DNA of 64,000 nt from a virus, in the IMG/VR virus record IMGVR_UViG_3300021256_000006, positions 32,001-96,000 of that record; one strand, written 5' to 3'. The first letter of the stretch is position 1. Each line of letters starts with the position of its first letter. The translations under genes were made by a program, and so were the position numbers. Positions 1 to 17,901 of the stretch are shown here, in pieces. The notes beneath the pieces were generated by a model. That model did no database searches, was not told the origin of the DNA, and was given only the letters and a program-made list of their open reading frames with translations.

Positions 1-54
1 TTCCATTCCTCATTCCTCATTCCTAATCCCAAATTCAATTAAATTTTTACGACT
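1..54 (+). repeat. Intergenic tandem-repeat tract (TTCCTMA heptamers); looks like the right arm of an element-X copy cut by the window edge
   Basis: ttccattcctcattcctcattcctaat is readable directly; same units as 1079-1110. Confidence 0.6.
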
Positions 55-1017
55 ATGACACAAGAAGAAATTATCCGCATCGCAACACAGGCAGCTATTG
101 CCGCAGTAAAAGCAATGGGCACAACAGCGCCACAAGTGAATAACTCTGCATCATCAAGGAGCGACAAGCCAAAGGCGCTCCCTGATGCAAAGGCGAATGC
201 CATTGGAAGCATCGTGGCAGAAGCCGCTACGGAAGCCGCCAAAAATGGCAAGAGAGTAGAGGCGCCCAAGGGCACCGCTATATTCATGGAGTATAGCGAG
301 AAACAGTTTGCCCTATGGGGTGACACGAAGGAAGTCCGCAATACGCTCAAAGAGTATGGAGCGAAAAAATGGGGCATCATCTGGGGGTTCATCCCCGATG
401 GCTGCAAAGAGGAAAACAAGGCCGAAGGCTGGTTCTTCCCCAAGAAAAACCTCGAAGAACACGGTGGAAAGACTGCACTCTTCAAGGCACTCAAAGCTCT
501 CGGAGTAAAAGTTACAGAGGGCGCAAGCCTAAAGGAGAAGACGGAGGCACACCGTGCCGCCATCGCCAAGGATAAGGCAGAGGAAGCTCCCAAGTCTGCT
601 CCCAAGACAAAGGATAGCAAACCAAAGGAGAGCAAGCCCAAGACAGAGCCAAAGCCAAAGGTCATCCCTATCAGGGTTGACGAGTATGAAGGCATCGCCA
701 TTGGAACGAAGAAACAAGAGAGTGGTGTCACATTCCAAGCCTATCCCGATGAGCCAGATGTGTTCTTCCGTGAGGACAAAATCTACCTCTGTATTGGGGA
801 GATAGGCGGGGAAAGCGCATTCCTCTTTGTCGGCAAGAAGGTTGATGGAGCGGTACCACCGCATATCAGACAGACTGCCGAGGACGGCATCCTCGTCGCA
901 ATCTCGAAGGGGATTGTCACCAAGGTTCATCAGTATATTATTGACGCATTCAAGGCTCTCGACGACAAATCCGGTTACAACTGGCTCGTCAAAGAGGGCT
1001 ATGTGAAAGCAGCGTGA
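55..1017 (+). CDS. Hypothetical protein with Lys/Pro/Glu-rich central linker
   Basis: 320-aa ORF with ATG in ACTATG context; linker KPKESKPKTEPKPK; no family recognised; ends in -KAA. Confidence 0.6.
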   Translation: MTQEEIIRIATQAAIAAVKAMGTTAPQVNNSASSRSDKPKALPDAKANAIGSIVAEAATEAAKNGKRVEAPKGTAIFMEYSEKQFALWGDTKEVRNTLKEYGAKKWGIIWGFIPDGCKEENKAEGWFFPKKNLEEHGGKTALFKALKALGVKVTEGASLKEKTEAHRAAIAKDKAEEAPKSAPKTKDSKPKESKPKTEPKPKVIPIRVDEYEGIAIGTKKQESGVTFQAYPDEPDVFFREDKIYLCIGEIGGESAFLFVGKKVDGAVPPHIRQTAEDGILVAISKGIVTKVHQYIIDAFKALDDKSGYNWLVKEGYVKAA

Positions 1018-1023
1018 AACTAA

Positions 1024-1129
1024 ATGAGGAGTTAGGAATTAGGAATTAGGAATTGATACCATGCCATCAGCATAACATTCCATTCCTCATTCCTCATTCC
1101 AAATTCCTAATTGTATCAACTCCTAATTC
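1024..1129 (+). repeat. Element X copy 1: large imperfect hairpin (AGGAATT-repeat arm, ~24-nt conserved core, AATTCCT-repeat arm, TTGTATCAAC)
   Basis: Arms are reverse-complementary heptamer repeats; core gataccatgccatcagcataacat; 1055-1109 matches the reverse complement of 14637-14691 at 53/55 positions. Confidence 0.75.
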
Positions 1130-1140
1130 TTTCAACGATT

Positions 1141-2178
1141 ATGGCTAAAAAGAAAAAACAATTTATCTCCGATTATAGCGCAAAGCGCATCGGAGACCTC
1201 ATAGAGGAAGTATTGAATAATGCGGAAAAGGTGCGGTGGCAAAAGCCGTGGCTTGATGTGGCAAGTGTGGAAACGCCTTGCCGCAACATTGATAGACCAG
1301 ACCCTTATCAAGGGGTTAATGCCGGACTCCTTCAGCTCGTAATGAGCGTGAAAGGCTACCGCACTCCATTGTTTGTGACTGGGGATAAAGCTCGTGACAT
1401 GGGGCTTTCTATCAAGAAGCAAGACAATGGCGACCGAGAGGAAGCATGGCCCGTGTTCAAGTGGCTCCATCTTATCTACGACAAAGATGGCAACCGCATC
1501 ACCTACGAGCAGTATTGCGACCTCGACGAAGAAGAGCAGCAGCAATGCCGAGAGCGTTGGTCACTCCGTGGCTATCTCGTCTATAACATTGACCAGACCA
1601 CTATGAAGGAAGATCTGCCAAACACTTATGCTAAATTCCTGGCCCTCTATCCTGAGGAAAAGGAGGTGCGCACCATGAAGGCAGAGGAAGACACCGTTGA
1701 CGAGGCATTGGACTATGTGCTTTCCACAGAGGGTGCATGGAGATGCCCAATTCATCATTCAATTAGCCACAAGGCTTATTATTCACCTGCCGAGGATGGC
1801 ATTCACCTCCCAATGAGGGAGCAGTTCAAGACAAACTCCGCTTATTATGGCGTGGCGCTTCATGAGATGGCGCACAGCACCAAGGGCGAGAAGAACATGA
1901 AGCGTGACTATGGGAGCAAAGGTTTTGGCTCCGAGGGCTATGCCCTTGAGGAATTGGTGGCAGAGTTCACTTCCGCATTCGTCGGACTTGACCGAGGTCA
2001 CACAAAGACTATCGACCAAGAGCACATCGCCTATGTGCAGAGTTGGCGCAAAGCCATCAAGAAGCACGATGTGGTAAGTACCATTGTTGACGACCTGATG
2101 AAAGCCGTCAATTACGAGATACGCATACTCCGAGAGACAGATACGATGCTTGCCGCTCCAAGCGCAGAGGCAGCATGA
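1141..2178 (+). CDS. ArdC-like antirestriction protein (ssDNA-binding N-domain plus zincin metallopeptidase C-domain)
   Basis: ORF 1111-2178 trimmed to the first ATG (GATTATGGCT). N-terminal motifs QKPW and PYQGVNAGLL; C-terminal HEMAHS (HExxH) and EELVAEF, as in the ArdC/DUF1738 family. Ends in -EAA. Confidence 0.7.
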   Translation: MAKKKKQFISDYSAKRIGDLIEEVLNNAEKVRWQKPWLDVASVETPCRNIDRPDPYQGVNAGLLQLVMSVKGYRTPLFVTGDKARDMGLSIKKQDNGDREEAWPVFKWLHLIYDKDGNRITYEQYCDLDEEEQQQCRERWSLRGYLVYNIDQTTMKEDLPNTYAKFLALYPEEKEVRTMKAEEDTVDEALDYVLSTEGAWRCPIHHSISHKAYYSPAEDGIHLPMREQFKTNSAYYGVALHEMAHSTKGEKNMKRDYGSKGFGSEGYALEELVAEFTSAFVGLDRGHTKTIDQEHIAYVQSWRKAIKKHDVVSTIVDDLMKAVNYEIRILRETDTMLAAPSAEAA

Positions 2179-2182
2179 TGCG

Positions 2183-2299
2183 GAGTTAGGAATTAGGAGT
2201 TAGGAATTAGGAATGAAATGTCATACCATTGGCAGAGTATCAATTCCTCATTCCTCATTCCTCATTCCTAATTCTATCAACATTCCTCATTCCTAATTC
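2183..2299 (+). repeat. Element X copy 2 (core flipped relative to copy 1)
   Basis: gagttaggaattaggagttaggaattaggaat / core gaaatgtcataccattggcagagtatc / aattcctcattcctcattcctcattcctaatt, then CTATCAAC. Confidence 0.7.
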
Positions 2300-2309
2300 T
2301 TAAACAACT

Positions 2310-2816
2310 ATGGCAAATCTTATGAACGGCACACTCTCTGCCATACTCAAGCAATCGCTTGACGAGAGAGCAAAAACGGATGCAGACTTTGCATCCAAGT
2401 ATAAAACAAAAAAAATCGAAGACTGCGTGTCTGCCATCTATGCTGCATTGGAAAGCATGGCAAGGAAAGCGGTCAGCGGTTCTGGTGGTGCTGCCGCCTG
2501 TGGTAGTGACGACCTGCTTGTCTCTGCCGCTGTCCATTGGTATGATGAGGAAAAACCCACGACCGAAAGCGTCGTGGCAATCCTCGAAGGTGGTACGGAA
2601 ATCATCAAGCAGAACAAACCGACGAAGCAAGCCAAGACTGCCGACGCCAAACCAACCGCAAAGCCCGCACCAACTGCCAAGCCAGCCGCAAAGCCAGCAC
2701 CGACACCAAAGCCAACTCCCAAGCCGATTCCGAAGATGGAGATTGTCAAGCCATCTGCAGCACCTATGACAGACGATGATGACGATGACGACGATGACAT
2801 TGATTTGTTCAGCTAA
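2310..2816 (+). CDS. PcfK-like protein (AcrIIA9-family candidate) with (A/T)KP-repeat linker and poly-Asp tail
   Basis: N-terminal AKTDADFASKY..IEDC..AAVHWYDEE matches PcfK-like proteins as I recall them. Sits immediately upstream of a PcfJ-like gene. C-terminus is AKPTAKPAPTAKPAAKPAPTPKPTPKP followed by DDDDDDDDD. Confidence 0.6.
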   Translation: MANLMNGTLSAILKQSLDERAKTDADFASKYKTKKIEDCVSAIYAALESMARKAVSGSGGAAACGSDDLLVSAAVHWYDEEKPTTESVVAILEGGTEIIKQNKPTKQAKTADAKPTAKPAPTAKPAAKPAPTPKPTPKPIPKMEIVKPSAAPMTDDDDDDDDDIDLFS

Positions 2817-2884
2817 TCGTCAGGGTAGGGGGACGCAGAGAATATTCCCCCTATCCACCAAGTATTATAAAAAATAGGAGGACT

Positions 2885-3067
2885 ATGGACAAGATTTGTA
2901 AAGGATGCCACTACAATCGTGGTTATTGGTGCAACCGATTGGTTATTCCTGGAGGAATGGGAATGCACGACAGAGTTGCAAGTGATTATCTGAAAGACAA
3001 TAAATGCAATTATTTCGAGGCAGGTCATTCAGAACCAACAACCAAACCTAATTTTGAAAATTCATAA
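2885..3067 (+). CDS. Small Cys-rich hypothetical protein (60 aa)
   Basis: ORF with CKGC...WC...KC pattern that fits the gap between neighbouring genes; no family recognised. Confidence 0.35.
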   Translation: MDKICKGCHYNRGYWCNRLVIPGGMGMHDRVASDYLKDNKCNYFEAGHSEPTTKPNFENS

Positions 3068-3082
3068 TTGGAGGACAAAACT

Positions 3083-4441
3083 ATGACGGAAATCGAACAC
3101 ATCAACGCATTGTTGGAGAAAAACACTCCGACATTTGGCGAAAGCGATATGATGGGTATCGCTTGTGACATTGAAGCAGATTTGGATTGGAACTATTATC
3201 CGGATAATGACGCAGAGGTGGCCATTGCCACTCATGCAGACGACTATCAAATAATAACCAACCATGTCATGTATATGTTACAGAAAGTCCACTGGAAAGA
3301 CCTTGACGGTGTGGAGCATGATGGAGAATATGACGAATGGGAAGACTATTATAGCTCGCTTAGTGATGTTGAGCGAGATAATTACGACAACGGATACGAT
3401 GACTTGTTCGATTATTATATGAAAGTCGAAGACGAGGGGGCGTATCGTCAATATTGGTACAATGTCAAGACTGGTGCTTGCTTTGTTCGTGACAGGCTTC
3501 TCGATCATCCAAAATATGGTACTATCAATAATGTCGAAGGAGAGTGGACGCCTCTGAAGGCTATCAAGCCATGCGAGGCGATAGATGAAGCCTATTACAA
3601 GGTTGATTTCAGCATCCATCCTCTTCTCGAAGAGAGAGGCTATGAATGTTTTTCCGCTCAGGAATACAACGATGCCACCGACCCAACAAACGACCATATC
3701 ATTGAGAATCGGATGCAGTTCTTCGATGGCATGAGAACAAATCCACAGTTGTGTTCGGTCATCCGTTACGGAGGATTGAAGATGCTTGGGCTTGTGTCTG
3801 GCGAACACCGTGAGCAATACATTACTGCCGTTAAGATTGCCAACCGACATCGCTATATGCCAGCCGACAAAGGAATGTGGATGGATTACCTTCACGACCT
3901 CATCGAATTGGGCAAAGACCTTCACAATCCATTTTATGTATGCCCCGAAGATTTGAGGGCTGCACATGAGAAATACCACCGCCTCTATGTTAGAGAAATG
4001 GAGAAGAGAGAAAAGGAAAGACGATTGCAGGAACTTATTGCCCGTTCCAAGCCCTATGCACAACGCATTGCTCCATTCCTTTCTCTTGCCTGGCACACCG
4101 ACCAGTATGCCGTGTTTGTCTGCCCATCGGTGGAAGATATGGTGGAGGAAGGACAGAAGATGCACCACTGCGTAGGCATTATGGGCTACGACAAGAAGCC
4201 CGACTCCCTCATCCTCTTCTGCCGCACTCCACAAGGAGAGCGTATCAGCACGATTGAGTACAGCATCAGTCGTGGCAAGGTGTTGCAAAACCGAGCCGCC
4301 TGCAACAAAGTTCCCCTCTATCTTGACGAGGTGAACAAGATGCTTGAAAAGGATGCAGAGCGCATCAGGTCTTGCAAACTTATCAGCATCAACAAAAACA
4401 AAGTTCAACCAGCAGCCGAGGCAATCGCCTTGGCTGCATAA
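3083..4441 (+). CDS. PcfJ-like protein
   Basis: ORF 3068 (TTG) trimmed to ATG 3083. C-terminal GKDLHNPFYVCPEDLRAAHEKY ... EEGQKMHHCVG ... KPDSLILF resembles the Bacteroides PcfJ-like family. Ends in -ALAA. Confidence 0.65.
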   Translation: MTEIEHINALLEKNTPTFGESDMMGIACDIEADLDWNYYPDNDAEVAIATHADDYQIITNHVMYMLQKVHWKDLDGVEHDGEYDEWEDYYSSLSDVERDNYDNGYDDLFDYYMKVEDEGAYRQYWYNVKTGACFVRDRLLDHPKYGTINNVEGEWTPLKAIKPCEAIDEAYYKVDFSIHPLLEERGYECFSAQEYNDATDPTNDHIIENRMQFFDGMRTNPQLCSVIRYGGLKMLGLVSGEHREQYITAVKIANRHRYMPADKGMWMDYLHDLIELGKDLHNPFYVCPEDLRAAHEKYHRLYVREMEKREKERRLQELIARSKPYAQRIAPFLSLAWHTDQYAVFVCPSVEDMVEEGQKMHHCVGIMGYDKKPDSLILFCRTPQGERISTIEYSISRGKVLQNRAACNKVPLYLDEVNKMLEKDAERIRSCKLISINKNKVQPAAEAIALAA

Positions 4442-4452
4442 TACTACGAATT

Positions 4453-4944
4453 ATGGCACACAGCAAAATTTTTCAAGTTAGCGAAGCTCCTATCGACAAG
4501 GACGACTTCAAAAGCTCGTATGATTATTGCGATAACCATCAAGAATTTGCCGACTGGATTGGCGATAACGTGGAAGATGAAGTAGAACGAAAAAAGTATA
4601 TTGAGTATCTCGTCAAAGAATTGGATGGCACATTCTCCATGGGTGAGAATGACACATTGGTGTTCAATGGTAAAAAGCCGCTCAACAAATTCTTGGAGGC
4701 ATGGGCAAACAAACTACAAGAACTTGCTAAAAGCATAACGAAAGATACAATCACAAGCAGCTCTGCCCTTAGCGACCTTCGCCATGTGGCAAGCGACACT
4801 CACAAGAACTCCGACTATAGATTTGACATTGAGAGCTGGACGGGTTATGCCGCACCTCTCTGCGAATTTATTGACTTTATATCAAATAGGTTAAAGAAAG
4901 GCGACAAAGTTTACATCGGAGCAATTATTGATTTTCACTATTAA
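4453..4944 (+). CDS. Hypothetical protein (163 aa)
   Basis: ORF 4372-4944 trimmed to ATG 4453 (AATTATGGCA context), just after the upstream stop. Confidence 0.5.
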   Translation: MAHSKIFQVSEAPIDKDDFKSSYDYCDNHQEFADWIGDNVEDEVERKKYIEYLVKELDGTFSMGENDTLVFNGKKPLNKFLEAWANKLQELAKSITKDTITSSSALSDLRHVASDTHKNSDYRFDIESWTGYAAPLCEFIDFISNRLKKGDKVYIGAIIDFHY

Positions 4945-4956
4945 AAAACAACAACT

Positions 4957-5118
4957 ATGGCAATACAAATTTCAATTTACAACCTGCGAACAAAGCAAAA
5001 GGATATTCGTTATATATATGACGAATCAAAAAATGTCGAGATTTGGAACGCTCAAAGAATACTCACAAATGAGACTTCGTGCAAAGGCTTTGATATGGTA
5101 TTAACTGAAATTGTATAA
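4957..5118 (+). CDS. Small hypothetical protein (53 aa)
   Basis: Not in the ORF track (<60 aa). ACAACTATGGCAA start context identical to neighbouring genes; open to TAA at 5116. Confidence 0.3.
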   Translation: MAIQISIYNLRTKQKDIRYIYDESKNVEIWNAQRILTNETSCKGFDMVLTEIV

Positions 5119-5168
5119 AGTATGGCAATACGTTATAAGAACCTGATAAGAGATAAGGAGGAACAGTT

Positions 5169-5705
5169 ATGGATAAAGAAATGAGAAAAAGACTCGAAAA
5201 GTTTGGTCGAGTTGAGGAAGATTCAAAAACTTGGGTGCATCCTTGGGAAACCTATTGGAGATTGTATTGCAAGAAACATCACGGCTTACTTGTAAAGATT
5301 CTTAGCAAGATGTACCCAGACTACACATTTTCACTGGGTGAGAGCCATATTTGCGGAACGATTTTCCAAGTAATCATAATAAACAAAAAAGGAATGACTA
5401 TGGCAAAGAAAAAAATATGGCTTGTCACACAAGAAAGCAATGTGGACGGAGAAATAACATTCAATGTGACGCCTTGCAAGGATTTAGGTACAGCCATCCG
5501 AACAATGAAGAAGGAAATAGACACAATCCTGGACGAGTCGCAAAAGTACAAGGATGCCCGCAGATGGATGGAAGGTGACGACACACTCAACTACGACGAT
5601 TGCCCCTTTGTATGGGAAAATGAAAACCATGACTCGTGGTATCTTAAAGTCATTAACGATGACTACTACGAAGACTTACGAATTGAAGAAAAGGAAATAA
5701 TTTAG
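5169..5705 (+). CDS. Hypothetical protein (178 aa; alternative start at 5400)
   Basis: ORF track; internal GACTATGGCAAAG context at 5397-5408 would give a 101-aa product. Confidence 0.5.
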   Translation: MDKEMRKRLEKFGRVEEDSKTWVHPWETYWRLYCKKHHGLLVKILSKMYPDYTFSLGESHICGTIFQVIIINKKGMTMAKKKIWLVTQESNVDGEITFNVTPCKDLGTAIRTMKKEIDTILDESQKYKDARRWMEGDDTLNYDDCPFVWENENHDSWYLKVINDDYYEDLRIEEKEII

Positions 5706-5717
5706 GAGGACAACACC

Positions 5718-6197
5718 ATGCTAATAGATTTAATTCTCAATCGCAAAGACGGTCAGCCCTACAACGCAAAGAAGTTCTATGATGCCGTAACTTCTTACCT
5801 CGACACTTTCCACTGCTACATCGGATTGGCAAGGGCGCTCGACGGTGGCGAAGAAGAGGACGTTATCACCGAACTCTGCGACTACATCAAAAGTGGAAAC
5901 TACAACCTCAACATCTGCGACTACATCAGCAGCGTGAAGTGGTTGGAAGACGACGAGCCAGAAAAGACAGAACAGCGTTCCGTTTGGCTACGCATTGGAG
6001 TGGTGGTAACAGGAACAGCGGAAGAAATCGAAGCCTTGTTCCAAGAAGAGGGTGCAGATAAAGCACTCCAAAAATTGCTTGACAACAAGCAATATGAGTT
6101 TGATGGCGACACTTACATCCCAGAATATTGTGTCGAAACCTACAATGAGGAATATCACACCGACCATGAAGTCGGTGAATACGAATTTAATGTATAA
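5718..6197 (+). CDS. Hypothetical acidic protein (159 aa)
   Basis: ORF track; tight spacing with neighbours; no family recognised. Confidence 0.5.
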   Translation: MLIDLILNRKDGQPYNAKKFYDAVTSYLDTFHCYIGLARALDGGEEEDVITELCDYIKSGNYNLNICDYISSVKWLEDDEPEKTEQRSVWLRIGVVVTGTAEEIEALFQEEGADKALQKLLDNKQYEFDGDTYIPEYCVETYNEEYHTDHEVGEYEFNV

Positions 6198-6253
6198 CTA
6201 AAAAAATATAACCAATAGGAACAGAAATAACAGTAAAGAAAACAACATTCGAG

Positions 6254-6469
6254 GTGGAGGGTTGCAAAGAGCCCTGCATTGAAGTAAGCAATGGCTATTG
6301 CATGGTAAGAATCAGCAAGTGCCACAGGCTGATAGGGCGGAGCTCGCTCTATATAAGAGAGTATCTGGACGGCTTCTACAATGGAGAAGACGAGTTTACG
6401 GGCAACTTTGACTCGCTATCCGATGAAGATGCAATCAGGTTGGCCAGGCAATACTCAGCATATCTATAA
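6254..6469 (+). CDS. Hypothetical small protein (GTG start; ATG alternative at 6302)
   Basis: 71-aa ORF in the + strand operon; start uncertain. Confidence 0.35.
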   Translation: MEGCKEPCIEVSNGYCMVRISKCHRLIGRSSLYIREYLDGFYNGEDEFTGNFDSLSDEDAIRLARQYSAYL

Positions 6470-6471
6470 TC

Positions 6472-6738
6472 ATGTTCCATTTAAACACCGACAAAACAAT
6501 GAAGAAACATATCAAGAACGCAATTCAATACGTGAAAGAAAATCACGAATGGAGCGAAGCGTGTGAGCAACACGCATTGGAAATCATTGACAAATGCAGA
6601 TGCCCTATTTCTCAGGCCTCCGACGAAATCACCTATGAAATTCAGCAGTTGATGAATGACTACGGCGATGATCATGACTTGCCTGAAGGCTGGTGGATGG
6701 AAGATATAGACGAGGATGAAATATTTATGAGAATATAA
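6472..6738 (+). CDS. Hypothetical acidic protein (88 aa)
   Basis: ORF track; starts 3 nt after the previous stop; next gene starts 2 nt after its stop. Confidence 0.45.
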
Positions 6739-6739
6739 T

Positions 6740-7354
6740 ATGGAAAAGACAATTATTCAGCAGTTCAATGAACTGAAAGAGAAGCACCCAACGGCAATCC
6801 TCCTGTTCCGGTGTGGCGACTTCTACGTAACCTACGAGGATGATGCTCAAATCTGTGCAAACGTGTTGGGCATCACCCTTACCAAACGAACAAGCGACGG
6901 CACTCGCACGGCAGGTTTTCCTTACCATGCTCTTGACACATATCTTCCCAAATTGGTACGATACGTGAATCAACCCGAAAGCATTATGAAACGTATCGCT
7001 ATCTGTGACCAGTTGGAAGACCCACAGACCCAAAAACTTGTGAAGCGAGGCAGTAACGAATTAACCAAACAAGGAGGACTAACAATGAAACTTTTCCACG
7101 ATGTAGGCATTAACGAGCCTTGCCGTGACATCAAAGTCAACGGCAGAAAAATCATGGCAAACGTGTGGGGAGGGCAGACGGAAGTCACCCTCACCACATG
7201 GAGCGAAATCCGACGACTGGGGTTCAAGAAAAGAGAGCGAGCCTTCGGCAACCTTAACGACGGAACTCCCGCACTCTACTTTCAAGCATGGGACGAACAA
7301 AACAATAACCACTGGTTTCTCACCACAGAGAAACTTGAAGAGCTGGAGGACTGA
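6740..7354 (+). CDS. Orphan MutS domain-I (mismatch-binding N-terminal domain) protein with an unknown C-terminal domain
   Basis: [32 protein letters not shown]...LGITLTKR...[16 protein letters not shown]...[10 protein letters not shown] aligns by eye to E. coli MutS residues ~12-115. No connector, core or ATPase domains present. Confidence 0.75.
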
Positions 7355-7510
7355 CAATGACCTACAAACGATTTCACCGCATCATGAATGGTAGGAGTTA
7401 CACCATCACAACCCACCAGCCTGACGTGCCGGACACACTCCGCATATCGAGAGACAAAATGATTGTGTTTAACTATATCAAATAAATTCATCATCTAAAT
7501 CATCACAACT

Positions 7511-8611
7511 ATGGAAACTATGACAGCAAACGGAGTGACTTACTACCAAGATTGGGAAAAGTCAGAGGGTCACATCTATATGGTAAAGCCCAAGACCATC
7601 AATCGCTACATAAAAATTAAAGAAGAGCATCCACGAGAAGAAGCCTACGGTGTGTTTTTTGCTTTCAGCAAGGAACAGTTTCAGGAAGGCTACAAATCGC
7701 TGGTGCGACGTGGTTACATCAAGGATGGCGACAAGATAACACCCGGTGCTATGGGCATCTATGGCACCGCTGATGAAATAGCACGATTCTTCGATTTCTA
7801 CAATGAACGAGACAAGCGCATCGCTAAGGAGTGCGACCCACAAGAGGTGTATTTCTACGAGTGGAACAACCACGAATGTATGTTTGGCGATGATGACGAT
7901 GTGGTGAAACTCATTGCAGACTACTTCGGCAAGGAAGCAGCCCACAAAATTCATCGGGTGGGAGGTGGAAGGGACATCAACATTCTTGTTCCAATTACCG
8001 AACGAGACCACCACCTGCAAGCCCATGAGCATGACATCCTGCTTCTCTCACGGCTGAAGTATGACTGCGAAGGATTCCTCAGCGAAGGTGACTGCCGACA
8101 CGCCAGACCCAGTGACCTGTGGGCAAAGGATTTGAAAATGCAGATAAAAAAGATGCGAGAGTTGTTAGGAGGACTGCCCGATGACATCAAGGGAGAATCG
8201 CCAGTTACCGAGTCTGACATTGACGACTACGAGAAGAGGATGGTTGACGAACTCTGCAAGGAATTTTCCAAACCCAAATACAATCCTGCACCTGATACAA
8301 CATTTGACGAGTACCACAACGCAGAAATCAATGACGTAGATTTATATTACCAAGACGATGACGGGAAATGGCAACGACCTACCAATGTGTGGTTTTCCAA
8401 TGATTCCAGACGCTGGCATCTCAATGATGCCAACACACACGGCAGAGCATTCACATCCTACCTTGGCAAGCATGGCACCACGTTGGCTCCAGTCTATTAC
8501 ATGAGTTGGGGGTCATTGACGAGAAGGCCCTACGTCAACCAGAGATTCTGCAACGTCACCGCCCGCTACGACCATGAATCCGAACGACTTTACGATTTTT
8601 ACAGAGAATAG
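7511..8611 (+). CDS. Hypothetical protein (366 aa)
   Basis: ORF track; CAACTATGGAA start context; no family recognised. Confidence 0.55.
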   Translation: METMTANGVTYYQDWEKSEGHIYMVKPKTINRYIKIKEEHPREEAYGVFFAFSKEQFQEGYKSLVRRGYIKDGDKITPGAMGIYGTADEIARFFDFYNERDKRIAKECDPQEVYFYEWNNHECMFGDDDDVVKLIADYFGKEAAHKIHRVGGGRDINILVPITERDHHLQAHEHDILLLSRLKYDCEGFLSEGDCRHARPSDLWAKDLKMQIKKMRELLGGLPDDIKGESPVTESDIDDYEKRMVDELCKEFSKPKYNPAPDTTFDEYHNAEINDVDLYYQDDDGKWQRPTNVWFSNDSRRWHLNDANTHGRAFTSYLGKHGTTLAPVYYMSWGSLTRRPYVNQRFCNVTARYDHESERLYDFYRE

Positions 8612-8638
8612 AAACAACAATTCAAATTCATCACAACT

Positions 8639-9529
8639 ATGGCAAAAGATTTTATCAAACAATGGGATGGCAGACGGCTTGAAGATTGGGGAAGTGTAGT
8701 TTCCAAGGAGTTCAACCAATTCCAAAACGCTTTCAAGCGTGAGGTGGAACGTCTGGCACAAGAGGGTGGGGCAAAGCTGGTGAGTTATAGCAAAGGGCAT
8801 TACGATATGAGCGGTTTCATAGAAAAGGATGGAATCTATGTGTATTTCAGCTATGGAGCACTTGACCGCACCAAAGTGCAACTCACATCTGCATCCGACT
8901 TTATCTCTCCACTCTTGATGCGAACGGCCAAGCATGAAAAGGATTTTAGTGGAGGGTCAAACAACCATATCCTCTTCACACAGTTCCTGCCCACCATGCA
9001 ACGACTGTTTAAGCAACAGCAACCAAGTGTAGTCACTACACAACCCGAACCTGTAAAGGAGGTGAAACCAAGTGTAGTCACCCCACAAAAGAGTTTAGAC
9101 CGACGCATCTATGACAAGCTGCTGGAATTGGCTCAATGGGAATTTGAACAGAATATGGAACTTGTCGGGCTTCCCGTTACAATGACAGAAGCCACTTTCA
9201 CACTGTATGAACTGACGCATGATAAACATTCCAAATATGGGCCATTTACCTTTGTGGAAAAAGACCGATGGAAAAAATTTCATATTGAAGAAGACAACTT
9301 TAAGTGTAACTTTTTATCAAGTGAAGTGTTTGCAATAGCCTATAAGTTTGAAAATCTTTGCAACATCAAACCTAAAGACAAGGCTCGTTTCCATTACGAG
9401 AAAATGAAGAAACCGGCAACGCCACTTGTCAAACAATCTTTGACAACTGAAGCCATGTGGCTCCATTATGCTAACCTCTTCTTCCTTTTCTTCAACTTTA
9501 ACCAAGCAGAGGCACAACAAGCTGCCTAA
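8639..9529 (+). CDS. Hypothetical protein (296 aa)
   Basis: ORF track; ACAACTATGGCAAAA start. C-terminus WLHYANLFFLFFNFNQAEAQQAA is paralogous to 10876-10945. Ends in -QAA. Confidence 0.55.
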   Translation: MAKDFIKQWDGRRLEDWGSVVSKEFNQFQNAFKREVERLAQEGGAKLVSYSKGHYDMSGFIEKDGIYVYFSYGALDRTKVQLTSASDFISPLLMRTAKHEKDFSGGSNNHILFTQFLPTMQRLFKQQQPSVVTTQPEPVKEVKPSVVTPQKSLDRRIYDKLLELAQWEFEQNMELVGLPVTMTEATFTLYELTHDKHSKYGPFTFVEKDRWKKFHIEEDNFKCNFLSSEVFAIAYKFENLCNIKPKDKARFHYEKMKKPATPLVKQSLTTEAMWLHYANLFFLFFNFNQAEAQQAA

Positions 9530-9606
9530 CCCCCAGGGTGTGTGAGTGTAGCAAATATCTCACACATCCACTAATTTCAAATTCATCATCTAAATCATCA
9601 ACAATT

Positions 9607-12600
9607 ATGGCAACAAAACTACAAAGGCTTCGCGACAACATCGAAGCCATCAGGCACGCCCTGACATCCCCGCATTACGATGCCGACATCATGAACAAGT
9701 ACACGGGATTTGGCGGCATGACTTTTCTCCTCAACAACTTGGAGAAGAAATCATGGAGCAAGACTGACAAGCCCTGCTATGACGACACCGTGAAACTGCG
9801 CCAGCTGCTGCATGACAAGAGCGAGAACGAGAAACAATACGAGGCATGGATACAGAGTCTGAAGGCAAGCACATCTACCGCCTACTACACACCAAGGGAG
9901 ATTCCTCAAACGCTCTTCGACAATCTCTACCACATGGCAAAAGGTTGGTACGACAGCAACATCTATCCCAAAAAGGTGCTTGACCCATCAGCAGGAACTG
10001 GAGTCTTCATGTGCTCTGTCCTCCAAGCCTCTCTGGATTCCGGCAACATCCCTAAGCAAGTGGGCTACGAACTTGACCTACTCACAGGAACTATCCTCAA
10101 ACAAAGACTCCTGGGGCATGACATCCGCATCAAGGGTTTTGAGACCATCCCGAATGAAGACCTCGGCACATTCGACCTCGTGACCACCAATGTTCCCTTC
10201 GGCAACATCAACGTGTTTGACCCTCTCTACACCAATAGCAAGGAGCAAGTGAAAAGGGATGCAGCAAAGATGATCCACCGCTACTATGTGCTGAAAGGTC
10301 TTGATTGCCTCCGCAATGGAGGAGTGCTTGCCTACATCATCACCAGCAACTACATCAACCGTGACAACGACCAATTGGCAGAAGCGCTGAAGCACGCCAA
10401 CCTCGTCACCGCCATCCGATTTCCGAACAACCTCTTCAAGGAGGCGGGAACAGAAGTAGGGACCGACCTTCTCATACTCCAGAAGGACGAGCACAAGCAA
10501 GCTCTCACAGAAGACGAGCAGCAACTCCTCACACCTATGGAAATGGACGATTGCCCAACCAACCTCTACTTCAACAATCATCCCGACCACATCATTGCCA
10601 CCTCCACCGAGATAGGCACCGACCCCTACGGAAAGCCTGGCTATATCTACTACCACAAAGACGGAGTGCAAGGCGTAGCCGCAGACATGGGCCGCTTGCT
10701 CAAAGCGGAATTGCCAAACATTGACAAGTCTGCCTTTCAAAAGGGCCCCTCACTCTCTCCATCTTCCTCCCTTGCAGTCAGCGGTTCCCCCGCTGACACC
10801 ACTTCCCCCGCTCCCACCGCCAAGCATCCCATTCCTAATTCCTCATTCCTCATTCCTAATTCCGAACCCCTCTTCTTCCACTATGCCAACAAGTTTTTCC
10901 TCTTCTTCACCTTTGCACCAAGCAAGCATCAAGCACCTGCAAGCAAAGAACAGAAACTGAAAAACTTGCACAAGTTATACACCGACCTCTACAATTACGA
11001 GGCAAGCTATCAGAACGAGGACGAAGAAGGGCGCTGCAAGTTGAATGCTTCTTATGATTTGTTCGTCAGGTCTTACGGTTTCCTGAACGATTCCAAGAAT
11101 GCTTCTCTTGCCAAGCGTTTAGGCATTACCGACTTGCTTGCCATTGAGCGTTACGAGAATGGCACATGGGTAAAGGCAGACATCATGCTGGCACCCGTCG
11201 CCTTCTCCACCGACGAGGAACCGAAAGCGAGCTCACCCCAAGAGGCATTGGCAGCATCGCTGAATAAATACGGAAAGCCCAATATTGATTATATGCTCTC
11301 CATCACCACCTGTACCCGTGACCAACTTCTCAGCGAACTGCATGACGAGGTGTTCCTCAACCCCATCAACGGGCAATACGAAGTCAGGGCAAAGTTCCTC
11401 AGCGGAAATGTGATTGAGAAGATTGATGCAATCGAAAAACTTTCAGCTTCTCAACTGTCAACTGCGACCTGTCAACTTTCGCTGAAGGCTCTCAAGTCTG
11501 TCATCCCCGCTCCCATTCCTTTTGAGGAACTTGACTTCAACCTTGGCGAGCGCTGGATTGACTGCAAGGTGTATGAGCGCTTCGCCAACGACTTCTTCTC
11601 CATGCCTGGCAACACTCCCGACATCGAGGTGCGCTACAATCCTCTCCTCGACCAGTATGCAGCAGGTCTCAGGAAATGGGACTGGAATGAGAAGATACGC
11701 ACTCAGTACGCGGTCAAGAGTGAAGCATCCAAGACGCTTGACGGACTTGAAATATTCACTCATGCCCTGCATAATACAATACCCAAGTTGATGAAGTATC
11801 AACGAGACAAGGAAGGGCGCATCATGACGGACGAGAACTACGATAAAATTAAAATAGAGGACTCGGAGAATATGCAGTTGGCAGCAACCAAGATTGAAGA
11901 AATCAGACAGGCATTTGAGGAGTGGCTACGCCGACAGCCAAGGGAGTTCAGGGATGATTTGGCCAGCGTATACAACCATCGCTTCAACTGCTTTGTCAAG
12001 CCTAAATATGACGGTAGCCATCAGACATTCCCGGACCTCAACATGAAAGGGCTGAAAGAAAAGTATGGCATTGACCACATCTACGACAGCCAAAAGGATT
12101 GCGTCTGGATGCTCTTGCTGAATGGTGGTGGCATCTGCGACCACGAGGTAGGAAGCGGAAAGACACTCATCATGTGTATTGCAGCCCACGAGATGAAACG
12201 TCTCGGACTGTGCCACAAGCCAATGATAATAGGCATGAAGGCCAACGTGAGTGCCATAGCAGAAACATATCGGACAGCATATCCCAATGCTCGCATCCTC
12301 TTCGCTACAGAGGCTGACTACTCGGCAAGCAACCGTATGGCGTTCTTCAACAACGCCAAAAACAACGACTATGACTGCATCATCATGAGCCACGACCAGT
12401 TCGGACGTATTCCACAGAGCGAAAAAATACAGCTCGACATCATGTGCGACGAACTGCGACAGGTAGAAGACAGTCTGACAGCAATGGAGGATTGGGGCTA
12501 CAAAGTGACTTCAAAAATGCTCCGTGGATTGGAGATTAGAAAGCGCAACCTTCACGCAAAAATCATGAACCTCCGCAATTCTATCAATTCGAGGAAGGAT

Positions 12601-14628
12601 GATATTGTGGACTTCGAGAGGCTGGGCATTGACCACATCTTCATTGACGAGAGCCACCAGTTCAAGAACCTCGGCTTTGTGACACGGCATGACCGCGTGG
12701 CTGGCATTGGCAACACACAGGGCAGCAAGCGTGCTTTCAATCTGTTGATGGCCATCCGCACCATACAGAACCGCACAGGGCGTGACCTCGGTGCCACCTT
12801 CCTCAGTGGCACCACCGTTACTAATTCCCTCACAGAACTGTTCCTTCTCTTCAAGTATCTCCGGCCCAATGCACTTCGCAAACAAGCCATCACTTGCTTC
12901 GATGCTTGGGCTGCTATATTCACGAAGAAGAGCACGGAGTTCGAGTTCAATGTCACCAACTGCATCGTTCAGAAGGAGCGCTTCCGTTACTTTATCAAGG
13001 TGCCGGAACTCGCCATGTTCTACAACGAGATTACAGACTTCCGAACGGCAGAGGATGTCGGCATCGAACGACCCCAAAAGCATGCAAGACTGCTGAACAT
13101 AAAGCCGACACCGGACCAAGAGGGCTTCATTGAGCGTCTGATGAAGTTTGCGCAGGGAGGTTCCCCTTCCCTGATATTCCGTGAAAGCCTTTCCGACAAC
13201 GAGGAAAAGGCGCGTATGCTTATCTGTACCGACCTCGCTCGAAAGATGTCTCTGGATATGCGGCTGATTGACCCTCGCTTTGGTGATCATCCATCCAACA
13301 AGGCAAGCCAATGCGCCAACCTCGTCAAGAAGTATTATGATGAATATGACGACCAACGTGGCACACAGCTCATCTTCTCCGACATATCCACATGGCAAAA
13401 CAATACCGATTGGAGTGTGTACAGCGAAATCAAGCGAAAGCTGATGGACATGGGCATACCTGGCAGCGAAATCAGGTTCATTCAGGAGTGTAAGAACGAC
13501 CACCAAAAACAATTGCTCATTGAGCAGGTCAACCTCGGATATGTGCGTGTCCTCTTTGGCTCCACATCCATGCTGGGTACCGGAGTGAACCTCCAGCAGC
13601 GAGTGGTGGCCGTGCATCACCTCGACACACCGTGGCGACCTTCCGACCTCGAACAGAGAGACGGACGGGCCATCCGGAAAGGAAACGAAGTGGCACGGCT
13701 CTATGCCAACAACCAAGTAGATGTTATCATCTATGCTGTTGAACGCTCGTTGGACTCTTACAAGTTCAATCTCCTGCACCTCAAACAAACCTTCATCAAC
13801 CAACTCAAACGAGGACAACTCGGAGTGAGAACGATTGACGAGGGCAGCATGGACGAGAACGGCATGAACTTCTCGGAGTACATGGCTATTCTTTCCGGCA
13901 ACACCGACTTGCTGGAACGTGCCAAACTGGAGAAGCGCATTGCCATGCTGGAGGCCGAACGCAAGAACTTCTACCGTGACCAGCGAGAACAAGAGGAAAA
14001 AATGGAAACGCTGAAAAAGGATAACGAGCTCTACAAAAATCACCTTGCAGACGCCCAAGCCGACTTTGCCAAGTTCAACAAAGCAAGGCGCCTCGATGAA
14101 GAGGGCAATGTAGTGAACGACCTCCGTCTGGATGGTCTCGCACTCAGCGGTTCCCCCGCTGAGATACAAACCCTCCTCGGCAACCACCTCATCAAAATTG
14201 CCAACACCGCCAGAACACAAGATGCCCACCTTCCCATCGGCTCCATCTATGGATTCAAGGTGCTGGTCAAGACGGTGGAGACAGCAACGATGGACGGCAA
14301 TCCGCAGTACGCTAATATGTTCTTTGTCAGCAGCGACACACTCATGTATTCTTACAATAATGGCTACATCAATCGCAACTCTCCCAAGGCATCAGCACTC
14401 TACCCGCTGAACGCCTTGCAGCGCATCCCGGAAATCATCACTGGGTGGATGGAGAAAATCGAAAGCAACGAGAACAGCATCAAGCAGATTGCATCTATCC
14501 TTTCCGCAACGACTGAATGGTCAAAGGAGGACCGTTTGAAGCAGCTGAAGAATGACCTCAAACTTCTTGACAAGAAGATTGAGGAAGACATGAAGAAAAA
14601 GGACGAGCCCACCAAGAAAGCAGCCTAA
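9607..14628 (+). CDS. N6-adenine DNA methyltransferase / SNF2-family helicase fusion (P1 DarB-like architecture), 1673 aa
   Basis: Trimmed to ATG 9607 (ACAATTATGGCAACA). MTase motifs VLDPSAGTGVF and TNVPFG; helicase motifs GSGKT, DESHQFKN, LSGTTVTN, GTGVNLQ, QRDGRAIRKGN; coiled-coil C-terminus. Ends in -KAA. Confidence 0.85.
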   Translation: MATKLQRLRDNIEAIRHALTSPHYDADIMNKYTGFGGMTFLLNNLEKKSWSKTDKPCYDDTVKLRQLLHDKSENEKQYEAWIQSLKASTSTAYYTPREIPQTLFDNLYHMAKGWYDSNIYPKKVLDPSAGTGVFMCSVLQASLDSGNIPKQVGYELDLLTGTILKQRLLGHDIRIKGFETIPNEDLGTFDLVTTNVPFGNINVFDPLYTNSKEQVKRDAAKMIHRYYVLKGLDCLRNGGVLAYIITSNYINRDNDQLAEALKHANLVTAIRFPNNLFKEAGTEVGTDLLILQKDEHKQALTEDEQQLLTPMEMDDCPTNLYFNNHPDHIIATSTEIGTDPYGKPGYIYYHKDGVQGVAADMGRLLKAELPNIDKSAFQKGPSLSPSSSLAVSGSPADTTSPAPTAKHPIPNSSFLIPNSEPLFFHYANKFFLFFTFAPSKHQAPASKEQKLKNLHKLYTDLYNYEASYQNEDEEGRCKLNASYDLFVRSYGFLNDSKNASLAKRLGITDLLAIERYENGTWVKADIMLAPVAFSTDEEPKASSPQEALAASLNKYGKPNIDYMLSITTCTRDQLLSELHDEVFLNPINGQYEVRAKFLSGNVIEKIDAIEKLSASQLSTATCQLSLKALKSVIPAPIPFEELDFNLGERWIDCKVYERFANDFFSMPGNTPDIEVRYNPLLDQYAAGLRKWDWNEKIRTQYAVKSEASKTLDGLEIFTHALHNTIPKLMKYQRDKEGRIMTDENYDKIKIEDSENMQLAATKIEEIRQAFEEWLRRQPREFRDDLASVYNHRFNCFVKPKYDGSHQTFPDLNMKGLKEKYGIDHIYDSQKDCVWMLLLNGGGICDHEVGSGKTLIMCIAAHEMKRLGLCHKPMIIGMKANVSAIAETYRTAYPNARILFATEADYSASNRMAFFNNAKNNDYDCIIMSHDQFGRIPQSEKIQLDIMCDELRQVEDSLTAMEDWGYKVTSKMLRGLEIRKRNLHAKIMNLRNSINSRKDDIVDFERLGIDHIFIDESHQFKNLGFVTRHDRVAGIGNTQGSKRAFNLLMAIRTIQNRTGRDLGATFLSGTTVTNSLTELFLLFKYLRPNALRKQAITCFDAWAAIFTKKSTEFEFNVTNCIVQKERFRYFIKVPELAMFYNEITDFRTAEDVGIERPQKHARLLNIKPTPDQEGFIERLMKFAQGGSPSLIFRESLSDNEEKARMLICTDLARKMSLDMRLIDPRFGDHPSNKASQCANLVKKYYDEYDDQRGTQLIFSDISTWQNNTDWSVYSEIKRKLMDMGIPGSEIRFIQECKNDHQKQLLIEQVNLGYVRVLFGSTSMLGTGVNLQQRVVAVHHLDTPWRPSDLEQRDGRAIRKGNEVARLYANNQVDVIIYAVERSLDSYKFNLLHLKQTFINQLKRGQLGVRTIDEGSMDENGMNFSEYMAILSGNTDLLERAKLEKRIAMLEAERKNFYRDQREQEEKMETLKKDNELYKNHLADAQADFAKFNKARRLDEEGNVVNDLRLDGLALSGSPAEIQTLLGNHLIKIANTARTQDAHLPIGSIYGFKVLVKTVETATMDGNPQYANMFFVSSDTLMYSYNNGYINRNSPKASALYPLNALQRIPEIITGWMEKIESNENSIKQIASILSATTEWSKEDRLKQLKNDLKLLDKKIEEDMKKKDEPTKKAA
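10741..10945 (+). repeat. Intergenic-type repeat module embedded in-frame between the MTase and helicase halves
   Basis: Contains a hairpin copy (10777-10797), TTCCTMA heptamers (10829-10862), a CACCTTTGCACC box and a ~70-nt paralog of 9459-9529. Confidence 0.7.
10777..10797 (+). repeat. GC hairpin family copy (inside ORF, translated as SGSPA)
   Basis: cttgca GTCAGCGG-TTCCC-CCGCTGAC. Confidence 0.8.
14144..14162 (+). repeat. GC hairpin family copy (inside ORF, translated as SGSPA)
   Basis: ctcgcac TCAGCGG-TTCCC-CCGCTGA. Confidence 0.8.
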
Positions 14629-14636
14629 TAAAAAAA

Positions 14637-14790
14637 TAGGAATTTGGAATGAGGAATGAGGAATGGTATGTTATGCTGATTGCATGGTATCAATTCCTAT
14701 CTCCTCATTTCTCATTCCTAACTCCTCATTGTATCAACATTCCATTCCTAACTCCTAATTCCTAATTCCTCATTTTGTATAATTCCTCAT
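14637..14790 (+). repeat. Element X copy 3 (inverted relative to copy 1) plus extra TTCCTMA heptamers
   Basis: 14637-14691 is the reverse complement of 1055-1109 with 2 mismatches; followed by an AATTCCT-type arm, TTGTATCAAC and more heptamers. Confidence 0.75.
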
Positions 14791-14805
14791 TTATTCTTAC
14801 CTTTG
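14774..14805 (+). promoter_or_regulatory. Bacteroides-type promoter (-33 TTTG, -7 TACCTTTG)
   Basis: TTTG at 14774-14777 and TACCTTTG at 14798-14805, 20 nt apart; matches the TTTG / TAnnTTTG consensus. Confidence 0.5.
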
Positions 14806-14809
14806 CACC

Positions 14810-14903
14810 GGAAATGCGATAGTTTCCGGTCATAGTAATCCTTGTTTCCAAGGATGATTTGATGATGAGGAGGGCGGCGTGATGAACCGCCCTCCAACTT
14901 TTT
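14810..14903 (+). ncRNA. Candidate ~94-nt structured small RNA
   Basis: Promoter immediately upstream; three hairpins (CCGGAAA/TTTCCGG at 14808-14829, ATCCTTG/CAAGGAT at 14838-14855, GGAGGGCGG/CCGCCCTCC at 14869-14895) followed by TTTTT; no credible ORF. Confidence 0.45.
14869..14903 (+). terminator. Rho-independent terminator
   Basis: 9-bp GC stem GGAGGGCGG-cgtgatgaa-CCGCCCTCC followed by aacTTTTT. Confidence 0.65.
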
Positions 14904-14924
14904 CCCATCCTTTGCTCCTGCGTA

Positions 14925-14941
14925 CAGCGGTTTTCCCGCTG
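14925..14941 (+). repeat. GC hairpin family copy
   Basis: cctgcgta CAGCGG-TTTTC-CCGCTG. Confidence 0.85.
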
Positions 14942-14968
14942 ACACCGCTCAATCACCCTCCCTGCGTA

Positions 14969-14985
14969 CAGCGGTTTTCCCGCTG
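14969..14985 (+). repeat. GC hairpin family copy
   Basis: cctgcgta CAGCGG-TTTTC-CCGCTG; second copy 44 nt after the first. Confidence 0.85.
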
Positions 14986-15043
14986 TCTCCCATCTTATAT
15001 AAATAATGTGTACTGCAACTTCAAGACAAAAAAGTTGCAAAAC

Positions 15044-15057
15044 ATGTTGCATAACAT
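15044..15057. promoter_or_regulatory. Candidate operator ATGTT-N4-AACAT
   Basis: Dyad arms ATGTT/AACAT 47 nt upstream of the -7 box; the same arrangement occurs at 55446-55501. Confidence 0.4.
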
Positions 15058-15090
15058 AAAAATGATGTAACAAAATACATCAAAACACGA

Positions 15091-15098
15091 TAACTTTG
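15091..15098 (+). promoter_or_regulatory. -7 promoter box TAACTTTG
   Basis: Exact TAnnTTTG match 67 nt upstream of ATG 15165. Confidence 0.5.
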
Positions 15099-15164
15099 CA
15101 AACAGAATCAATAAACGCTGCGCCAGATAGCAAAACCAAATCCCAAGGGCATGGGTAACAGATT

Positions 15165-16280: not shown

Positions 16281-16336
16281 TCCTACTTCATTATATAACC
16301 CAACAGCCCTCGACATCACGGTTAAGTCAGGAACTT

Positions 16337-17149: not shown

Positions 17150-17179
17150 TAACGAACGAAAGCATTATATCATATAATT

Positions 17180-17868: not shown

Positions 17869-17877
17869 CAAACGAAG

Positions 17878-17901
17878 GGAGGGAGCCAACAGACTCCCTC
17901 C
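17878..17901. terminator. GC hairpin, possible bidirectional terminator
   Basis: GGAGGGAG-ccaacaga-CTCCCTCC 10 nt after the stop; T-rich run only on the minus-strand side. Confidence 0.4.

Follow-up and report, generated by a model that had tools for sequence, protein, structure and literature searches.

The virus genome IMGVR_UViG_3300021256_000006 (IMG/VR) is 99,953 bp long. A 127-bp repeat shared by its two ends identifies it as a complete, circular assembly. The stretch analyzed here, called the window below, comprises 64,000 nucleotides and corresponds to bases 32,001-96,000 of that record. Its first part, from position 55 to position 14628, holds 15 open reading frames (ORFs), all on the + strand and closely packed, with gaps of 1-156 nt. 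They encode an ArdC-like protein, PcfK- and PcfJ-like proteins, a stand-alone MutS domain I, a DarB-like methylase-helicase, a DUF7659 + LPD11 protein and a set of proteins of no known family. We read this block, with a fair degree of confidence, as an arm of a ~100-kb Bacteroidales phage genome that serves counter-defense and establishment and is conserved within the phage lineage.

The genome is that of a gut/rumen-type Bacteroidales phage. It has tailed-phage genes for a head maturation protease (phrog_53) and a 2246-residue tape measure protein (PF10145), a diversity-generating retroelement reverse transcriptase, and non-core genes for a DnaG-type primase, C5 and N4/N6 methylases, HU, a Rep3-type initiator and ParA. 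GenBank phages contain no near-identical DNA, and the GC content of the block is like that of the rest of the genome. An initial annotation, made from the DNA letters alone, had put the block (as positions 1141-14628) at the leading end of the phage genome. These positions correspond to 33.1-46.6 kb of the circular record, and the impression of a leading end arose from where the window was cut. Because the Terminase_6N profile found no match and neither a terminase nor a pac site could be placed, the packaging start, and with it any true leading end, could not be located. The natural unit starts one gene earlier than annotated, at g320 (55-1017), and ends at the stop codon of the DarB-like gene. 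Family calls were made by searches of Pfam, PHROGs, NCBIfam, Atlas and PDB, with bit scores read against the Pfam cut-offs. These profile searches bore out all five families first named for the locus (ArdC, PcfK, PcfJ, MutS domain I and methylase-helicase; PcfK marginally), as well as the 1673 residues of the last protein counted from its ATG.

The ArdC-like protein (1141-2178, + strand) joins an ArdC-N domain, which binds single-stranded DNA, to a zincin metallopeptidase domain. Pfam gives 42.1 bits for ArdcN (PF08401; cut-off 22.6) and 100.2 bits for MPTase-PolyVal (PF18818), and the protein falls in phrog_7245 'anti-restriction protein' with an E-value of 3e-48. It also matches the solved ArdC of the IncW plasmid R388 (PDB 6i89/6sna) with an E-value of 2e-22, aligning to residues 25-265 of 6i89. 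The zinc site is intact, HEMAH (residue 241) and EELVAE lining up with HEATH and EELIAE of 6i89. The phage protein thus shares with R388 ArdC the two-domain layout, the HExxH + Glu zinc site and a full-length alignment (PMC7213743). Unlike R388 ArdC, which is encoded by a conjugative plasmid, it is encoded by a tailed double-stranded DNA phage, and it has an acidic insertion of ~40 residues in the N-domain (residues ~100-140 align poorly). R388 ArdC counters hsdRMS in the recipient, and acts when expressed there (PMC7213743).

The last gene of the block (9607-14628, + strand) encodes a 1673-residue protein with an N6-adenine methyltransferase (MTase) and an SF2/SNF2-type helicase. N6_Mtase (PF02384) scores 43.1 bits and Helicase_C 32.1 bits, and SNF2-rel_dom is weak and under its cut-off. 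The full length of the protein is covered by its match to phrog_10089 'DarB-like antirestriction' (E 1.4e-261), which confirms the likeness to phage P1 DarB proposed at the outset; a PDB sequence search gave no match. The methylase motifs are intact (motif I DPSAGTG, motif IV NVPF), as are the helicase motifs Walker A GSGKT (~residues 857-861) and DESH (residue 1014). We take motif IV to be the N-[LIV]-P-[FY] variant, as in Erm and KsgA. P1 DarB, which has 2255 residues, is likewise an N6-adenine MTase fused to an SF2 helicase. The present protein differs from it in being 1673 residues long, in having NVPF and not NPPY/F as motif IV, and in having its nearest kin among conjugative-element proteins, while being ~28% identical to the DarB-like proteins of other phages. 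No DarA- or Hdf-type partners of the P1 system were recognized. P1 DarB typifies the MTase-helicase dyad, and an N-terminal LPD36 has been described for it (PMC5512222); Pfam found no match before residue ~78 of the present protein, the region where LPD36 would be expected. The anti-restriction role of DarB has been shown experimentally (PMC5512222, citing Iida 1987), and the P1 head contains DarB as one of its structural proteins (PMC5512222). Going by family and intact motifs, the identification of the ArdC-like and the DarB-like proteins as putative anti-restriction proteins holds.

PcfK, PcfJ and the other genes of the block

The PcfK-like protein (2310-2816, + strand) carries the domain of the AcrIIA9 family. 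Its Pfam PcfK match is marginal, at 29.6 bits against a cut-off of 27, and covers profile positions 8-107 of 139; PF14058 was present in five of ten PcfK homologs. A globular domain of ~95 residues leads into a linker rich in Pro, Ala and Lys, after which an acidic tip closes the C-terminus with DDD..IDLFS; both the linker and the DDD-x-DLF(G/S) tip are conserved in an alignment of 11 PcfK homologs. This layout is, we presume, reminiscent of the C-terminal tail of SSB. Over 76 residues the protein is 33% identical (E 6e-7) to the N-terminal part of a Phocaeicola dorei plasmid protein named 'Cas9 inhibitor AcrIIA9 family' by NCBI. The link between PcfK-like proteins and AcrIIA9 that the initial annotation drew is found in the literature, which also reports numerous AcrIIA9/PcfK homologs in IMG/VR (PMC6739104). 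The phage protein shares the Pfam PcfK domain with AcrIIA9, the PcfK-domain inhibitor of Cas9; unlike it, it is a distant member of the family with a marginal score, and it is always paired with PcfJ and, in one plasmid, fused to it. This constant pairing and the fusion suggest a two-part system and not a lone anti-CRISPR.

A 60-residue ORF (2885-3067, + strand) separates pcfK from pcfJ, and a related contig, L023, has a 96-residue ORF in the same position. The PcfJ-like protein (3083-4441, + strand; 452 residues) has its PcfJ domain at the C-terminus, with 113.6 bits against a cut-off of 25. Alignment of homologs shows an invariant core, E356-G357 ... H362-C363-V364, and H361 occurs in at least 90% of the sequences. 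The AlphaFold2 (AF2) model of the protein has a predicted local distance difference test score (pLDDT) of 87.8, and Foldseek found no match for it in the PDB at E ≤ 0.001. Two candidate identities were rejected. As an acetyltransferase, PcfJ gave GNAT-like rows only (VIA-align, residues 330-433; Z 5-6.7, root-mean-square deviation 3-4.7 Å, 71-108 aligned residues), which are too weak; and HEKYH at residue 295, considered as a zincin motif, is not conserved among homologs. A predicted complex of PcfJ with PcfK scored 0.10 against a mark of 0.32 and is evidence neither way.

In the P. dorei plasmid CP126057.1 (L028:1882-3540), PcfK and PcfJ form a single 552-residue ORF annotated 'Cas9 inhibitor AcrIIA9 family protein', and the same 1659-nt stretch is split by frameshifts into two genes in the Bacteroides thetaiotaomicron plasmid NZ_CP103154.1 (L027:7882-9540). 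Because the two are constantly adjacent, and fused in one plasmid, PcfK and PcfJ may well act jointly; this genomic context would mean that the widespread AcrIIA9/PcfK family normally acts with PcfJ.

The stand-alone MutS domain I protein (6740-7354, + strand; 204 residues; Pfam MutS_I 89.5 bits) matches MutS over residues 5-115 only, in alignment with residues 13-103 of E. coli MutS, and its C-terminal ~90 residues match no family. Pfam found no connector, core, clamp or ABC ATPase domain, and the NCBIfam MutS model scored 95.8 against a cut-off of 480. Relatives carry versions of 111 and 175 residues. With domain I alone present and the Glu of the Phe-x-Glu motif replaced, a function as mismatch-repair MutS was rejected, and the protein is predicted to be a module for DNA binding rather than for repair. 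It is followed by a 366-residue DUF7659 + LPD11 protein (7511-8611, + strand; Pfam), which the initial annotation had passed over and which has a homolog with 48% identity in the related contig L016; LPD11 is a 'large polyvalent-protein-associated domain' (PMC5512222).

Two further proteins are of no known family and occupy constant positions. The first, g320 (320 residues, + strand), opens the conserved core g320-ArdC-PcfK-PcfJ, and its homologs lie directly upstream of ArdC in L016, L020 and L023 with 38-49% identity. In hhalign its profile matched a 348-residue protein upstream of PcfJ in L018 with 97% probability, and showed no relation to the 341-residue protein that comes before PcfK in L022, an integrated element. 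The second, g296 (8639-9529, + strand), stands directly upstream of the methylase-helicase, as it does in L020 and L023, and consists of a conserved N-domain of ~128 residues and a variable C-terminal part. GH, Y69-F70-x-Y72, DR, MR and GG-x-N are invariant in the N-domain, and Y55-D56, T78 and T96 are found in at least 90% of sequences. AF2 gives the N-domain a pLDDT of ~80 and the remainder as disordered or low. Fold matches to the N-domain were mixed, with Z ≤ 7 (a P1 head chain 5.6, AcrIIA11 5.1, PsiB 5.0), and were rejected as noise; BFVD was uninformative. Homologs of the N-domain (P0039-P0052, from contigs of 80-130 kb) join it to unrelated C-terminal parts, and in two relatives (P0041/P0042) it is fused to MutS-I.

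The remaining six small ORFs (4453-4944, 4957-5118, 5169-5705, 5718-6197, 6254-6469 and 6472-6738, all on the + strand) have no known family and make up a variable, mosaic part of the block, of which only g178 and g159 recur in relatives, in other positions. The genes of the block had been described as co-oriented with many small acidic ORFs. The orientation is indeed uniform; acidity is confined to three ORFs, 5718-6197 (isoelectric point, pI, 4.19), 6472-6738 (pI 4.48) and 6254-6469 (pI 4.78), the others being near neutral. Searches with g320, g163, g178, g159, s88, g296, g371 and g270 returned nothing usable from Pfam (E ≤ 5), PHROGs, NCBIfam or Atlas.

Kinship with phages and conjugative elements

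Relatives of the block were found through homologs of PcfJ, PcfK and g296 on metagenomic contigs, and synteny and identity were determined by tblastn; a search of IMG/VR for related loci with PcfJ or the DarB-like protein singly gave no relatives. L020 and L021 have the order g320-ArdC-PcfK-PcfJ-MutS_I (111 residues)-small ORFs-g296-DarB-like, with identities of 76-89% for the named genes and 49% for g320. L023 (95.9 kb) reads Rep3 ... g329-ArdC-PcfK-x-PcfJ ... MutS_I (175 residues) ... a 299-residue protein-DarB-like, with 72-82% identity for ArdC, PcfK and PcfJ and 68% for the DarB-like protein. In L016 (70.7 kb) the order is g320-ArdC-x-PcfK-PcfJ ... DUF7659/LPD11, at 38-64%, and the kinship is seen in the block genes. 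Two more distant contigs fall outside the tblastn check: L030 (131.7 kb), with HU, HU ... g296N-family-PcfK-PcfJ-ArdC ... DnaJ+LPD29-large helicase, and an 11-kb contig with PcfJ ... [g296N+MutS_I fusion]-ArdC-x-NAD ligase. Because the same families co-cluster, in differing gene orders, in at least five related contigs, their clustering is not due to chance. Within the phage lineage the gene set is old. Gene order varies freely, small ORFs come and go and domains are swapped between genes, which is the behavior of an accessory counter-defense island with conserved anchors. Relatives add parts of their own, such as the DnaJ+LPD29 protein (L030:15559-16944) and, beside ArdC in the 11-kb contig, an NAD-dependent DNA ligase.

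The initial annotation held ArdC, PcfJ and PcfK to be typical of conjugative elements and not of phages. The second half of this statement did not stand. ArdC homologs occur in 57 GenBank phage records, among them the isolate phiCbK and its group, whose records label the proteins as ArdC-like antirestriction. PcfJ-domain proteins occur in 25, including isolated Polaribacter phages and the isolate Bacteroides phage BS-TP3, in the last of which PcfK and PcfJ are adjacent. MutS-I is found in 33, and PHROGs exist for the ArdC, PcfJ and MutS-I families. Some 'Bacteriophage sp.' records among these counts may be fragments of conjugative elements. One such record is the best 'phage' match of the DarB-like protein, MT835707.1 ('UNVERIFIED: Bacteriophage sp.', L029), with ORFs of 528, 722, 150 and 1982 residues. 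In CTnDOT-like elements, genes in this layout encode DUF3945, topoisomerase IA, DUF1896 and MTase-helicase in that order, so that a mislabeled fragment of a conjugative transposon, and not a phage, is the probable identity of the record.

The first half, kinship with conjugative elements, is real, and so is a gene pool shared with those of Bacteroidales. In its helicase part, the DarB-like protein has 50-55% identity to proteins encoded on CTnDOT-like elements and on plasmids of Bacteroides, Phocaeicola and Prevotella, as against ~28% to the DarB-like proteins of other phages, and every one of the closest methylase-helicase homologs from outside the lineage belongs to a CTnDOT-like element or a Bacteroidales plasmid. 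For ArdC and the PcfJ domain the identities to conjugative-element homologs are 31-35% and 33%. Several gene neighborhoods are alike as well, ArdC-like and PcfK-PcfJ genes lying nearby. Bacteroides fragilis NZ_OR675140 has a CTnDOT-like layout (integrase, DUF3945, topoisomerase IA, DUF1896, a 1946-residue methylase, tetQ, rteC, mobB/C); B. fragilis pBFS01_1 has ParA ... zincin metallopeptidase (ArdC-like)-DUF4116-DUF1896-helicase-related protein; and in a B. thetaiotaomicron conjugative plasmid an ArdC-like gene and traM lie a few kb away from ssb-x-PcfK-PcfJ. The differences are equally clear. Where these elements have DUF1896 followed by an 'N-6 DNA methylase/helicase-related protein' of 1.8-2.0 thousand residues, the phage has g296 in the place of DUF1896, and its methylase-helicase is without the ~340 residues that lie between the MTase and helicase parts of the CTnDOT-like and plasmid proteins. 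The phage also has no type IV secretion system (T4SS), relaxase or integrase.

Might the block, then, have been captured recently from a conjugative leading region, as the initial annotation offered as an alternative? The closest outside homologs of the methylase-helicase fit such an origin, the one in MT835707.1 included, labeled 'Bacteriophage sp.' as it is. The identities to conjugative elements are low, however, and recent capture is unlikely because ArdC and PcfJ are only 31-35% identical to the conjugative-element proteins. Moreover, related phage contigs of 80-130 kb retain the block with 55-85% identity, well above its identity to any conjugative element, and its GC content is not distinct from that of the genome. 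A conjugative leading region should neighbor an oriT or a relaxase on an element bearing a T4SS; no PF03432 relaxase was found in the 99,953-bp genome (a B. thetaiotaomicron control was positive), which has phage head and tail genes. We regard recent capture as very improbable.

Some support was found for the other proposal, that of a phage-plasmid chimera. The parA gene noted at 55575 was confirmed (window 55575-56336, phrog_164, E 6e-72). A Rep3_N-type initiator lies upstream of the window (genome 25523-26923; L012:11523-12923). It matches only the replication initiation proteins of 36 Bacteroidales plasmids, 31 of them typed as conjugative (23% identity, E 3e-12), and no GenBank phage. Neither a tyrosine (PF00589) or serine (PF00239) recombinase nor ParB_N was found in the genome. 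Structural genes are thus combined with a Rep3 initiator and ParA and with no integrase, the gene content of a phage-plasmid. Taken together, the Rep3-like initiator, the ParA and the missing integrase make an episomal lifestyle a plausible hypothesis.

Counter-defense, establishment or virion cargo

The families of the block recall the polyvalent proteins of phages and conjugative elements, which carry 2 to 15 domains per polypeptide and have been proposed to travel with or act on invading DNA (PMC5512222). ArdC-N is fused to MPTase in ~70% of cases, MutS-I occurs in Bacteroidetes and Firmicutes and co-occurs with ArdC-N in about 80% of cases, and solo domains of this type adjoin phage structural or T4SS genes (PMC5512222). 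The block shares with these proteins the ArdC-N + MPTase zincin, MutS-I, LPD11 and the DarB-type MTase-helicase dyad, as well as the proposed role of protecting and establishing invading DNA. It differs in that the domains, or pairs of them, are separate co-oriented ORFs, with stops and gaps of 1-156 nt between them. PcfK, PcfJ, g320 and the g296 N-domain are outside the polyvalent catalog, and PcfJ and PcfK have no occurrence in PMC5512222. The block is therefore best described as a disaggregated anti-restriction/establishment module of the polyvalent-protein type with a mobile PcfK-PcfJ pair, and so as an essentially known kind of counter-defense.

The analysis shows the identities of the domains, intact catalytic motifs, conserved clustering, gene fusions and the kinship with conjugative elements. 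We infer the activities, the timing of expression and whether the products are injected or made early, and the following scheme is to be read in that light. The ArdC-like protein would bind incoming DNA, and its intact metalloprotease would put a restriction component of the host out of action, in the way that R388 ArdC counters hsdRMS. Translocating on phage DNA, the DarB-like protein would methylate adenines in cis and so weaken type I restriction, as happens in P1. PcfK, with its AcrIIA9-family domain, and PcfJ may block Cas9-type interference or target host DNA-processing proteins, and MutS-I and LPD11 may be accessory DNA-binding or adaptor modules. The C5 and N4/N6 MTases would be a further investment in counter-defense elsewhere in the genome.

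Several points weigh against this scheme. ArdC-N is a binder of single-stranded DNA suited to conjugation, whereas a tailed phage injects double-stranded DNA. The PcfK score is just 2.6 bits over the Pfam cut-off, no AcrIIA9 model of NCBIfam matched the protein, and AcrIIA9 has been demonstrated on type II-A Cas9 and not on Bacteroidales systems (preprint 10.64898/2026.08.04.741601). In the MutS-I protein the Phe-x-Glu motif reads F-Y-V (GDFYV), so that the wedge Phe is kept and the discriminating Glu has become Val. No function is assignable to PcfJ, g320, g296 and the six small ORFs. Finally, the site of the block downstream of the Rep gene, and the HU and NAD-ligase genes in or beside the cluster of relatives, also fit a role in replication or establishment.

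The last point can be extended into a reading of its own, in which the block is mainly a phage-plasmid module for DNA establishment, replication and recombination that coats, remodels and repairs the genome for episomal settling, anti-restriction being secondary. The block lies behind the plasmid-type Rep3 initiator and on its strand, and the one canonical Bacteroides -7 box upstream is that before rep; ParA is present and no integrase was found. Genes for a helicase, a VRR-NUC nuclease and an integrase surround the PcfK-PcfJ pair of BS-TP3, ssb is just upstream of PcfK in plasmids, and the PcfK tail resembles the SSB tip. Set against this is that ArdC and DarB, the best-characterized families of the block, have experimental anti-restriction roles (PMC7213743; PMC5512222), and that variable small acidic ORFs and shuffled order are typical of accessory counter-defense islands and not of core replication modules. 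We think it unlikely that establishment is the main role. A doubtful but real possibility is that the products are virion cargo, the methylase-helicase being packed in the head and injected like P1 DarB, perhaps together with the ArdC-like and g296-N-domain proteins; the position of the genes would then be uninformative on early expression. The place of DarB in the P1 head and the proposed travel of polyvalent proteins with DNA speak for it, as do the location of the block, flanked by the arm of head genes with the phrog_53 protease and by the tail arm with the tape measure gene, and the layout of the g296 family, whose constant N-domain and swappable C-terminal cargo, MutS-I included, are typical of delivered effectors. 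No packaging signal, DarA/Hdf homolog or MuF-type header was found, however, the fold searches with the g296 N-domain were uninformative, and it is through its expression in the recipient that R388 ArdC acts (PMC7213743).

A more specific proposal, offered as frank speculation that we would not expect to hold in full, concerns two parts of the block that lie outside the polyvalent catalog. PcfK and PcfJ would be a two-component system, as opposed to a lone anti-CRISPR, in which the SSB-like disordered linker and acidic DDD-x-DLF tip of PcfK engage, or compete for, host repair and replication proteins that interact with SSB, and PcfJ would be an enzyme that provides the activity through its invariant E-G-x-x-M-H-H-C-V motif. 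In parallel, the conserved g296 N-domain would act as a module for delivery, or as a header, by which exchangeable cargo such as MutS-I enters the cell along with the phage DNA.

The locus shows a family of large phages (80-130 kb), possibly phage-plasmids, keeping a stable toolkit from the gene pool of CTnDOT-type elements and Bacteroides plasmids. If the counter-defense reading is right, two kinds of mobile element that share a host clade are linked by this toolkit in how they evade restriction. The counter-defense of Bacteroidales phages is poorly charted although such phages dominate the gut virome. The ArdC-like and DarB-like proteins, PcfK/PcfJ and the acidic small ORFs are also clonable candidates for improving phage or plasmid delivery into restriction-rich Bacteroides strains.

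Palindromes, promoters and an adjoining acidic protein

Three long imperfect palindromes of heptamer repeats, recognized by reading the sequence, punctuate the block. The first (1023-1112), of the form (AGGAATT)n ... (AATTCCT)n, lies between g320 and ardC, the second (2179-2303) between ardC and pcfK, and the third (14634-14790) closes the block and is followed by REP-like hairpins and then a -7 box. Their heptamers are (AGGAATT/AGGAGTT)n followed by (AATTCCT/CATTCCT)n. Compared with the genome, the palindrome at 1023-1112 gave matches on both strands, to itself and to about 10 further sites between genes. Rfam, searched with positions 1-19500, gave only spurious sub-threshold hairpin matches, which fell on the palindromes. 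These repeats could be terminators, operators or phage-specific promoters.

Scans for sigma-70 promoters and intrinsic terminators gave nothing above shuffled sequences. Canonical Bacteroides -7 boxes (TAnnTTTG) stand before a few + strand genes, at genome positions 14234, 22539, 25329 (rep), 47091 (window 15091) and 87494 (parA), and most genes, including the whole block, are without one. The box at window 15091, TAACTTTG, is of the Bacteroides type and starts the next unit after the DarB-like gene. GGAGGA boxes resembling Shine-Dalgarno sequences, unusual for Bacteroidota, precede the ORFs at 2885, 3083, 5169 and 5718. Just 3' of the block, at window 16337-17149, is a gene for a 270-residue protein with no family match, a pI of 4.05, 20% Asp+Glu and 3.7% Lys+Arg, which could be a candidate DNA mimic.

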